Counted from the stretch's first letter, positions 2,058 to 2,987 are shown. The stretch: DNA of 64,000 bases from Desulfarculia bacterium (GCA_963662305.1 OY759352.1:2013620-2077619); one strand, 5' to 3'. Numbers and translations: made by a program. The notes: generated by a model from the sequence alone, not told the origin.

Positions 2058-2987
2058 TCAAATTGACAAGCATTTTTTTAAAAAACGAATAGCGTCAAAA
2101 CAATTTTGGGGTGTAGTCCCGCTACGTAGTTCAACCACGCACAACGTTTCTGGTCCTATATGATCTTGGATATCATATTCGTTGAAATTATCCTTATTAG
2201 GAGGGACATGATCATTTGATAACCCATCTACTCCATGCAGATGAAATCCAAGACAATATTCTCCATAACGATCAAGCCATTGTCTATTTTTCCATAGACC
2301 GATATTTTCTAAAATTTTCCCATGGCCATAGTCATGCCAATATCCAAGATTTGCCGAACCAACCTCCGTTAAAATAATATGCAGTGAATCAAAATCGGGG
2401 ATGCAATGATGATAGCATCGGTTTTCCAAGGCAATTTTTATGTCATCGTTATTAGAACAAACTTCTCTTATGCTTTTTATTGAGTTTTCCAAATAGGGCT
2501 CTAACGTTTTCAAGTTGTTTTTCTGCTGCCTCAGGAACATATCCTTCAGCTCATCAATACTTATTTCTTCATTATGGCATAAACGATAATTCTGAATCAA
2601 TCGGTATAAATTATTTAATCCTAGATCATTTGATGCAACCTCATTGACTCCTGCATGAACAATGACCAATTTTACACCTAACGCTCTTGCGGTTCCAATT
2701 GTTGCATTTAATAACTCGACACCGTATCTTCTTTTTTCAGCATCAGTAGATGCAAGATAATCTCCATAAATATCAGAACGTAAATTATTAAAATTACAAC
2801 AAACATTGTGAAGGCTACTTATTCCAACATTATACTTGGCAATTAGAGTTTTTAGAACAGACACATCAACAGGACTGACATGGGGGCTAAGCTCATAATT
2901 TTTGATCCCCAATTTTGAGTATGTACTGAGATTTTCTTCTAAGGCTATAGACCCACCCTCAAACACAGAGGTTGACAAAGATATCAT
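2058..2987 (-). CDS. Xylose isomerase-like TIM-barrel protein (sugar phosphate isomerase/epimerase / AP-endonuclease-2 superfamily)
   Basis: 309 aa; motifs KLVIVHAG, KIALEN, GFHLHGVDG, DHVPP typical of the metal-binding TIM barrel shared by sugar-phosphate isomerases and endonuclease IV; start overlaps upstream gene stop by 4 nt. Confidence 0.6.
   Translation of the reverse strand: MISLSTSVFEGGSIALEENLSTYSKLGIKNYELSPHVSPVDVSVLKTLIAKYNVGISSLHNVCCNFNNLRSDIYGDYLASTDAEKRRYGVELLNATIGTARALGVKLVIVHAGVNEVASNDLGLNNLYRLIQNYRLCHNEEISIDELKDMFLRQQKNNLKTLEPYLENSIKSIREVCSNNDDIKIALENRCYHHCIPDFDSLHIILTEVGSANLGYWHDYGHGKILENIGLWKNRQWLDRYGEYCLGFHLHGVDGLSNDHVPPNKDNFNEYDIQDHIGPETLCVVELRSGTTPQNCFDAIRFLKKCLSI

Follow-up and report, generated by a model that had tools for sequence, protein, structure and literature searches.

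The closest described relatives of the protein treated here are (β/α)8 barrels of the AP_endonuc_2, or xylose-isomerase-like, superfamily, namely endonuclease IV (Nfo) of E. coli (PDB 1QTW), in which nine residues reportedly bind three zinc ions, the archaeal protein MJ1311 (PDB 3WQO), CbiR of Akkermansia, and the ketose 3-epimerases of P. cichorii (D-tagatose 3-epimerase, DTE) and T. maritima (TM0416) with related sugar isomerases; the multinuclear non-haem iron oxidases (MNIO, DUF692) such as MbnB and TglH can also be compared. The protein itself is encoded on the minus strand at positions 2058-2987 of a 64,000-nucleotide stretch of DNA from a Desulfarculia bacterium (GCA_963662305.1 OY759352.1:2013620-2077619), called the window below, and its gene is the last of five in a mobile cassette, together with genes for a radical S-adenosylmethionine (SAM) enzyme, a methyltransferase, a STAND NTPase and a small two-transmembrane (2-TM) protein. 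All nine Nfo ligands have putative counterparts in this triosephosphate isomerase (TIM) barrel. The resulting Nfo-like constellation of His, Asp and Glu at the ends of strands 3 to 8 suggests a multinuclear-metal hydrolase that would cleave a phosphoester or phosphodiester within a STAND-associated, conflict- or defence-like cassette, a tentative reading that we hold at somewhat short of even confidence.

Each of the known relatives resembles the TIM barrel in part. With Nfo it shares the superfamily and, by the putative pairing of the ligands, the order H-H-E-DxxH-H-D(x)H-E at the ends of strands 3 to 8, with similar spacing; it differs in the adjacent pair D259-H260, in a reorganised loop after the first histidine and in a helical hairpin of about 40 residues between β4 and β5, and its overall fold is closer to MJ1311 and the epimerases. 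MJ1311, deposited as a 'D-tagatose 3-epimerase-like protein', is the nearest solved relative and has H119, E159, D192, H195, H220, D229, H231 and E260 at matching places in alignment fragments. It is, however, only about 20% identical, has D-E-H at the hairpin, lacks the long β4/β5 insertion (H119 and E159 are 40 residues apart, compared with 77 in the TIM barrel) and is archaeal and chromosomal, whereas the TIM barrel lies in a mobile cassette. The paper on the MJ1311 structure is said to describe nine conserved endonuclease IV ligands and no DNA-binding groove, and eight of the nine were re-derived from our alignments. The protein has also been listed as a predicted endonuclease IV homologue of M. 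jannaschii (PMC2770678). CbiR provides a precedent within the superfamily for a metal-dependent phosphodiesterase acting on a small molecule, and 80% of its homologues adjoin genes of cobamide biosynthesis or salvage (PMC7733943); the TIM barrel is unmatched by its model (NF041277), and the cassette holds no cobamide gene.

The cassette can be compared to the STAND defence systems (Avs, nSTAND) in that its STAND protein has repeat sensor arms, is accompanied by separately encoded enzymes and lies in a mobile island of low G+C (GC) content, beside integrases and, in a second copy of the cassette, beside a Shedu gene. It also bears some likeness to prokaryotic viperins, since its radical SAM enzyme might make a modified metabolite, although the enzyme's matches to the viperin (pVip) models are weak (E 9e-6, in the cluster-binding region only). 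We are aware of no system in which a STAND protein occurs together with a TehB-like methyltransferase, an AP_endonuc_2 barrel and a radical SAM enzyme of this subfamily.

Putative metal site and family of the TIM barrel

The initial annotation had placed a TIM-barrel gene at 2058-2987 and counted its product to the superfamily of endonuclease IV, and both statements were borne out. The open reading frame (ORF) runs exactly from ATG to stop, residues 25-305 match PF01261 (AP_endonuc_2) with 52.3 bits (E 8.7e-14, gathering score 31.1), and a confident predicted model of the 309-residue protein has the (β/α)8 fold, so that superfamily membership holds both by score and by fold.

Conservation was read from an alignment of 78 sequences, made up of the TIM barrel and 77 members of the clade described below. 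Sixteen columns are invariant (E32, H60, H111, G113, E188, R190, W217, H218, D219, G221, H222, G247, H249, D259, H260 and E286), and they contain the putative counterparts of all nine Nfo ligands. In the predicted model each of these putative ligands lies at or just past the C-terminal end of a strand:

H60, after β3
H111, after β4
E188, after β5
D219 and H222, after β6
H249, after β7
D259 and H260, in a short hairpin after β7
E286, after β8

The E. coli nfo gene carries H69, H109, E145, D179, H182, H216, D229, H231 and E261, as checked in its sequence. Six pairs (Nfo residue second) were obtained both in the profile-sequence alignment and with MAFFT, namely E188/E145, D219/D179, H222/H182, H249/H216, H260/H231 and E286/E261. 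H111 is paired with H109 by the NCBIfam nfo model (residues 78-133 on model positions 76-131) and by local hhalign, D259 falls one residue off D229, and H60 ends β3 as H69 does in Nfo, a pairing made by strand position. Because of the insertion of about 40 mostly helical residues between β4 and β5, which is a feature of the clade (77 residues from H111 to E188, compared with 36 in Nfo), full-length hhalign and MAFFT alignments with Nfo slip by one β/α unit in the N-terminal part, where only local alignments are usable; a PDB search with a consensus of the N-terminal part stopped short of the β3 histidine.

The ketose epimerases are different at two places. In HMMER alignments the position of H60 is Thr in DTE and Glu in TM0416, and both have a deletion with an Arg where the TIM barrel has D259-H260. 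Of the one-metal epimerase site, the TIM barrel thus has the four ligands E188, D219, H249 and E286, with D259-H260 at the place of the substrate-binding Arg after β7. As the β3 histidine and the D-H hairpin are absent from the epimerases, the putative metal site appears to be of the endonuclease IV type and not of the one-metal epimerase type, and the comparison of metal ligands that the initial annotation had proposed favours such a centre over that of a sugar epimerase.

Membership of the well-defined families was not found. The sequence alone retrieved from the PDB only MJ1311 (E 0.007) and endonuclease IV chains (E 0.1-0.4); the clade profile retrieved MJ1311 at E 7e-17, Art22, TM0416 and D-tagatose 3-epimerases at about 1e-6, and endonuclease IV at 2e-3. 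Overall fold and profile place the TIM barrel with MJ1311 and the ketose epimerases, endonuclease IV ranking only 47th in Foldseek. The only curated NCBIfam models matched were those for nfo, by a local match of residues 78-133 far under the cut-offs (TIGR00587, 24.9 bits against 129.65; NF002196, 17.9 against 333). At E <= 10 the TIM barrel was unmatched by the CbiR model (cut-off 105 bits), through which alone the comparison with CbiR was made, by the curated isomerase and epimerase models (IolO, FrlC, UlaE, psicose epimerase and XylA) and by PF05114 (DUF692/MNIO); it was likewise unmatched by the models of PADLOC-DB 2.0. Among the 78 aligned sequences, 65 match the CbiR model, which makes it the most-matched family (best E 6e-8, 15-25 bits against 105), followed by the IolO epimerase model with 40; clade members reach 17-31 bits against isomerase and epimerase models with cut-offs of about 300, and a single one weakly matches the MNIO model ApyH. 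By profile and fold, the best reciprocal similarity is to the MJ1311-like clade, with ligand motifs in common. These comparisons indicate that the TIM barrel is a member of the superfamily and of the MJ1311-like clade, and not of Nfo, CbiR, the epimerases or the MNIOs.

The proposal that a phosphodiester-cleaving role is at least as plausible as isomerisation therefore stands as far as the metal site is concerned. It fails on membership in the Nfo or CbiR families, the overall fold is nearer to MJ1311 and the epimerases, and no DNA-binding feature of the TIM barrel could be shown (the residues that Nfo inserts into the minor groove are R37, Y72 and L73). Taken as a whole, the initial interpretation is partly supported.

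Among about 15 billion proteins, no close homologue of the TIM barrel was found besides the second cassette copy. A single-sequence search (phmmer via a word index) gave one relative at 30% identity, and the profile search gave at least 365 clusters (at 50% identity) at E < 1e-30, with more than 120 listed proteins at profile E < 1e-33 and more than 595 genome loci. These relatives come mainly from Omnitrophota, Planctomycetota, Desulfobacterota and Anaerolineae, are 21-30% identical to the TIM barrel and, where named in their source, carry the generic name 'sugar phosphate isomerase/epimerase'. Judged by these similarities, the TIM barrel is a strongly diverged, orphan-like side branch of a large uncharacterised MJ1311-like clade.

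The clade gene itself is chromosomal and housekeeping-like in appearance. A Memo-like gene follows it in 50 of 85 loci (L001-L085), with DUF1844, aroQ, pepP, efp and accBC often next, and rpsU, tonB and a TonB-dependent receptor gene are often found upstream. In Omnitrophota and Planctomycetota (e.g. L004) the order is (TonB-dependent receptor-tonB-rpsU)-TIM barrel-Memo-like-DUF1844-aroQ-pepP-efp-accB-accC. Further upstream, cobU, cobT and cobS occur in 5 of 84 clade loci (cobUTS-btuB-tonB), while in some Desulfobacterota loci the gene stands downstream of a TudS-like gene and upstream of sugar-nucleotide genes; no DNA-repair neighbourhood was seen around the clade genes. The clade neighbourhoods fix no function.

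With all ligands kept, the island copy has a deviating residue at 12 positions where the remaining 77 sequences of the alignment are conserved to 85% or more. Six of the 12 departures lie in ligand-flanking loops:

P64C, after H60
E195C, after E188-N-R190
A223G, after H222
D252G, after H249-x-H251
G264N and G266D, in the PGxG loop after D259-H260

We read this pattern as the same catalytic centre with a remodelled pocket, and kept ligands beside changed flanking loops would fit the same chemistry on a new substrate; it could alternatively reflect damage and a disabled pocket. The two cassette copies of the gene differ at 7 nucleotides, 5 of them synonymous, and the two amino-acid changes, R87K and I142V, are both conservative. 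This argues for purifying selection and the gene looks constrained, although the numbers are small. Its ATG overlaps the stop codon of the preceding 2-TM gene (ATGA), which suggests translational coupling between the two.

The mobile cassette and its surroundings

The cassette and the two other features of the low-GC island are the following:

1829-8434, mobile cassette of 6.6 kb with exactly five genes, delimited by blastn against its second copy
2058-2987, minus strand, TIM barrel of 309 amino acids, AP_endonuc_2/xylose-isomerase-like superfamily, last gene of the cassette
2984-3448, minus strand, small basic 2-TM protein of 154 amino acids (140 from M15), from the ORF list and hydropathy
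3418-4071, minus strand, TehB-like class I SAM methyltransferase (PF03848, E 6e-23)
4052-6901, minus strand, STAND NTPase of 949 amino acids (nSTAND1, PF20703, E 3e-14; C-terminal HEAT_2, E 1e-42)
6891-8120, minus strand, radical SAM enzyme of 409 amino acids, with C54-x3-C58-x2-C61 (CX3CX2C) and GGGEPTL
850-1635, minus strand, orphan ORF of 261 amino acids, in the low-GC island and outside the shared cassette
9049-10242, plus strand, tyrosine recombinase (integrase; PF00589, E 2e-34) at the right edge of the low-GC island

All five cassette genes lie on the same strand and are tightly packed or overlapping. The island with a radical SAM enzyme and a methyltransferase, as described in the initial annotation, is confirmed by the drop in GC content (33-38% at 2-8 kb of the window, compared with about 65% at 10-38 kb), by the CX3CX2C and GGGEP motifs and by the PF03848 match. 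The methyltransferase also matches TehB structures at E 3e-15, and the STAND NTPase has the Walker A sequence GPLGVGKSS, with no effector domain recognised by domain search. SPASM cysteines are absent from the radical SAM enzyme. The 2-TM protein, with a pI of 9.6 and hydrophobic segments at about residues 70-98 and 98-130, gave no significant match in family searches and is called as 140 amino acids in the second copy.

This second copy, on a contig of a different assembly (L087, positions 4554-11159; ENA ERZ21831104 ctg90647l), is 99.05% identical over 6606 bp to window positions 1829-8434 and is set in unrelated flanks; it follows that the five genes travel together and that they did so recently. 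Integrases and transposases adjoin the cassette in L087, as does a Shedu-type SduA_C gene accompanied by a helicase. The window integrase at 9049-10242 is not common to L087, and the orphan ORF at 850-1635 had no Pfam or PADLOC family, a negligible NCBIfam match (E 0.0095) and a cluster of one in the protein collection. No terminal repeats were found at the cassette ends, promoter and terminator scans of the cassette were at background, and the coding strand showed no precursor-like small ORF, either within the cassette or upstream of it. No counterpart of the TIM barrel, of the radical SAM enzyme or of the cassette turned up among viral contigs, phage records and plasmid DNA. In PADLOC-DB 2.0 the cassette fits no system, with generic domain matches only (the mad2 methyltransferase domain, HEAT-ARM_XIII repeats and the weak pVip matches). 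The TIM barrel is of a known superfamily in a new genomic setting, and its cassette fits no catalogued defence system.

In L087 a segment of 4.7 kb is inserted right at the cassette end; it carries small ORFs and genes for an integrase, the Shedu-type SduA_C protein and a helicase, and is bounded on both sides by a repeat of about 27 bp (ATAATTATCCGAAAGTGRAGTATTCA, at 11134-11160 and 15853-15879). The site is uninterrupted in the window (1794-1852), whose flank then runs on as L087 does beyond the second repeat. An attachment site for a further integrative defence element therefore seems to be present at the cassette end.

In the host DNA to the right of the island, two CobN/Mg-chelatase genes (PF02514, E 1e-303 and 0) are interleaved with TonB-dependent receptors and ABC ATPases on the minus strand (18143-21886, 24963-28943, 23167-25122 and 38982-41153). 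A cobamide link of the TIM barrel through these genes was considered and rejected: the mobile cassette does not include the CobN genes (18-29 kb), which therefore say nothing about the TIM barrel, no cobamide gene stands beside it in the cassette, and the second copy is found in a different context. The GC content falls from about 65-70% at 10-38 kb to 54-62% at 38-64 kb (38001-64000); the right-hand part of the window was possibly acquired as well. On the minus strand there is a tRNA-Arg(gcg) at 32505-32601, and on the plus strand a PAS histidine kinase gene at 41925-44090.

Partners of the radical SAM enzyme

The subfamily of the radical SAM enzyme is rare, and its members have in common the motifs LRLSxDxFH, FR(S/T) and IxPxGxVYxYG. 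The predicted model of the enzyme is of low confidence (predicted local distance difference test, pLDDT, 60), its nearest solved relative is the peptide epimerase YydG/EpeE, and a metagenome scan with the radical SAM alignment returned generic radical SAM cores only, at 22-31% identity.

The closest relative, at 38% identity, is found in locus L088 next to a methyltransferase that is 52% identical to that of our cassette (BLASTP E 1e-83). The STAND NTPase of L088 (NB-ARC/TPR) is unrelated to the cassette STAND, and there is no TIM barrel. As the pair recurs with an unrelated STAND protein, the methyltransferase-radical SAM pair is the conserved core and the STAND partners are exchangeable, while the TIM barrel and the 2-TM protein belong to our cassette only. 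In L088 the pair and the STAND gene (within 4499-12775, all on the same strand) are followed by a UbiE-like methyltransferase, two small ORFs, AbiEii, His_Phos_1 and a caspase-like peptidase.

More distant relatives, at 20-26% identity, have partners of other folds. On enterobacterial plasmids the gene for a PHP-domain phosphoesterase overlaps the stop of the radical SAM relative, in L102 the partners are NUDIX, PPDK_N and phosphoenolpyruvate (PEP)-utilizer genes, and in L105 a PEP-utilizer gene follows, with a restriction-modification system alongside; such relatives often adjoin known defence genes. This recurrence, over six loci, of phosphoesterase and phosphotransfer partners of differing folds suggests a phosphorylated substrate and a phosphoester-cleaving step that the TIM barrel could supply. 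The plasmid operon (L103, NZ_CP114775.1, 3187-10897; L104, NZ_CP056645.1, 3068-10780) has the order WYL regulator, JukA-like, PDC-M40B membrane protein, radical SAM relative, PHP and two hypotheticals, with DUF262 or AbpA defence genes adjoining, and PADLOC gave no match for its radical SAM and PHP part.

Proposed function of the TIM barrel

The data show directly the fold, the conservation of the ligands, the mobility of the cassette, the methyltransferase-radical SAM pair and the genes around it, and from these the chemistry, substrate and defence role are inferred. If the TIM barrel is a phosphoester-cleaving metal hydrolase, the nSTAND1/HEAT NTPase may serve as switch or sensor and the radical SAM enzyme and TehB-like methyltransferase as the conserved enzymatic core, to which the 2-TM protein and the TIM barrel would be lineage-specific additions, the TIM barrel doing the cleavage that PHP, NUDIX or histidine-phosphatase enzymes may do in related operons. 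For the substrate we lean towards a nucleotide or other phosphorylated small molecule rather than DNA, because of the putatively capping insertion and the pattern of neighbours. A more specific version is possible but doubtful: the cassette would be an undescribed STAND-gated immune or conflict module, in which the radical SAM enzyme, of a new subfamily, and the methyltransferase make or alter a phosphorylated metabolite or nucleotide and the endonuclease IV-type barrel acts as a phosphodiesterase that matures, turns over or executes the signal.

Several observations weigh against a hydrolase. The match of H60 to H69 was made by strand position alone, D259 and H260 are adjacent whereas Nfo and MJ1311 have D-x-H, and the scores against Nfo and CbiR are far under the cut-offs. 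The same nine-ligand set is used by the MNIOs, whose chemistry is oxidative, and the solved protein nearest to the radical SAM enzyme is a peptide epimerase. In addition, an Asp stands at position 266, where all 77 other sequences have Gly, and D252 is replaced by Gly; the phosphoesterase neighbours, finally, come from six loci of distant radical SAM relatives (20-38% identity).

The alternative that survives best, although we consider it unlikely, is a sugar or sugar-phosphate isomerase, epimerase or dehydratase, in which the E188/D219/H249/E286 site reshapes the sugar part of a product of the radical SAM enzyme and the methyltransferase. TIM barrels of this superfamily act in sugar and natural-product pathways. 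After MJ1311, the best fold and profile matches are ketose 3-epimerases, the Art22 isomerase, UlaE and xylose isomerase, the E-D-H-E core of the epimerases is in place, some clade members in Desulfobacterota adjoin NAD-epimerase and dTDP-sugar genes, and the radical SAM enzyme has the sugar-modifying radical SAM enzymes DesII and BlsE among its fold matches; xylose isomerase, moreover, holds its second metal by the loop after β7. On the other hand, none of the curated isomerase or epimerase families matched the TIM barrel, five further invariant residues (H60, H111, H222, D259 and H260) would have no role in a one-metal epimerase, the substrate-binding Arg is replaced by the D-H hairpin, and the relatives of the radical SAM enzyme pair with phosphoesterases and not with sugar enzymes.

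Somewhat less probable again is an endonuclease IV-type nuclease, similar to an apurinic/apyrimidinic (AP) endonuclease or 3'-phosphodiesterase and directed at DNA or RNA, which the STAND NTPase would release as an effector that kills the cell or degrades the invader. STAND systems commonly employ nuclease effectors and the cassette STAND has no effector domain of its own, which together with the putative nine-ligand correspondence, the nfo models as the only curated matches and the listing of MJ1311 as an endonuclease IV homologue would be in line with this role. The nfo match is, however, local and 105 bits under its cut-off; the loop after H60 is reorganised relative to the DNA-insertion loop H69-D-S-Y72-L73 of Nfo (in a low-confidence alignment), the helical insertion of about 40 residues follows H111, MJ1311 reportedly has no groove for DNA, the housekeeping clade lacks a DNA-repair neighbourhood and no PADLOC model was matched.

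We give little credence to an MNIO/DUF692-like oxidase, which with the YydG-like radical SAM enzyme and the methyltransferase would make a toxin out of a peptide or protein, perhaps the 2-TM protein. The nine-ligand site is common to MNIOs and one clade member weakly matches ApyH, but PF05114 was unmatched, only 1 of the 78 clade sequences touches an MNIO model compared with 65 for CbiR, neither a partner protein nor a precursor-like small ORF accompanies the gene, and the model of the radical SAM enzyme is of low confidence. That the gene is a hitch-hiking or decaying passenger without function, as G266D at an invariant position, five near-invariant departures and the related L088 cassette without a TIM barrel might be taken to indicate, is very improbable in view of the intact metal ligands, the 5 synonymous among 7 differences between copies, the start overlapping the upstream stop in a tightly packed operon and the confident model.

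The whole clade (365 or more clusters at 50% identity, over 595 genome loci) and its offshoot in the island appear to carry the three-metal site of phosphodiester-cleaving enzymes, and the label 'sugar phosphate isomerase/epimerase' is therefore probably wrong for them. The compact, recently transferred cassette is a small clonable unit in which the chemistry of the TIM barrel, and with it a possible new defence mechanism, can be approached. Were the TIM barrel a sugar isomerase after all, it would be an ordinary case. Should the cassette be a STAND-gated module, however, no AP_endonuc_2 barrel would have been assigned to a system of that kind before, and the case would open a way to the function of the MJ1311-like clade.

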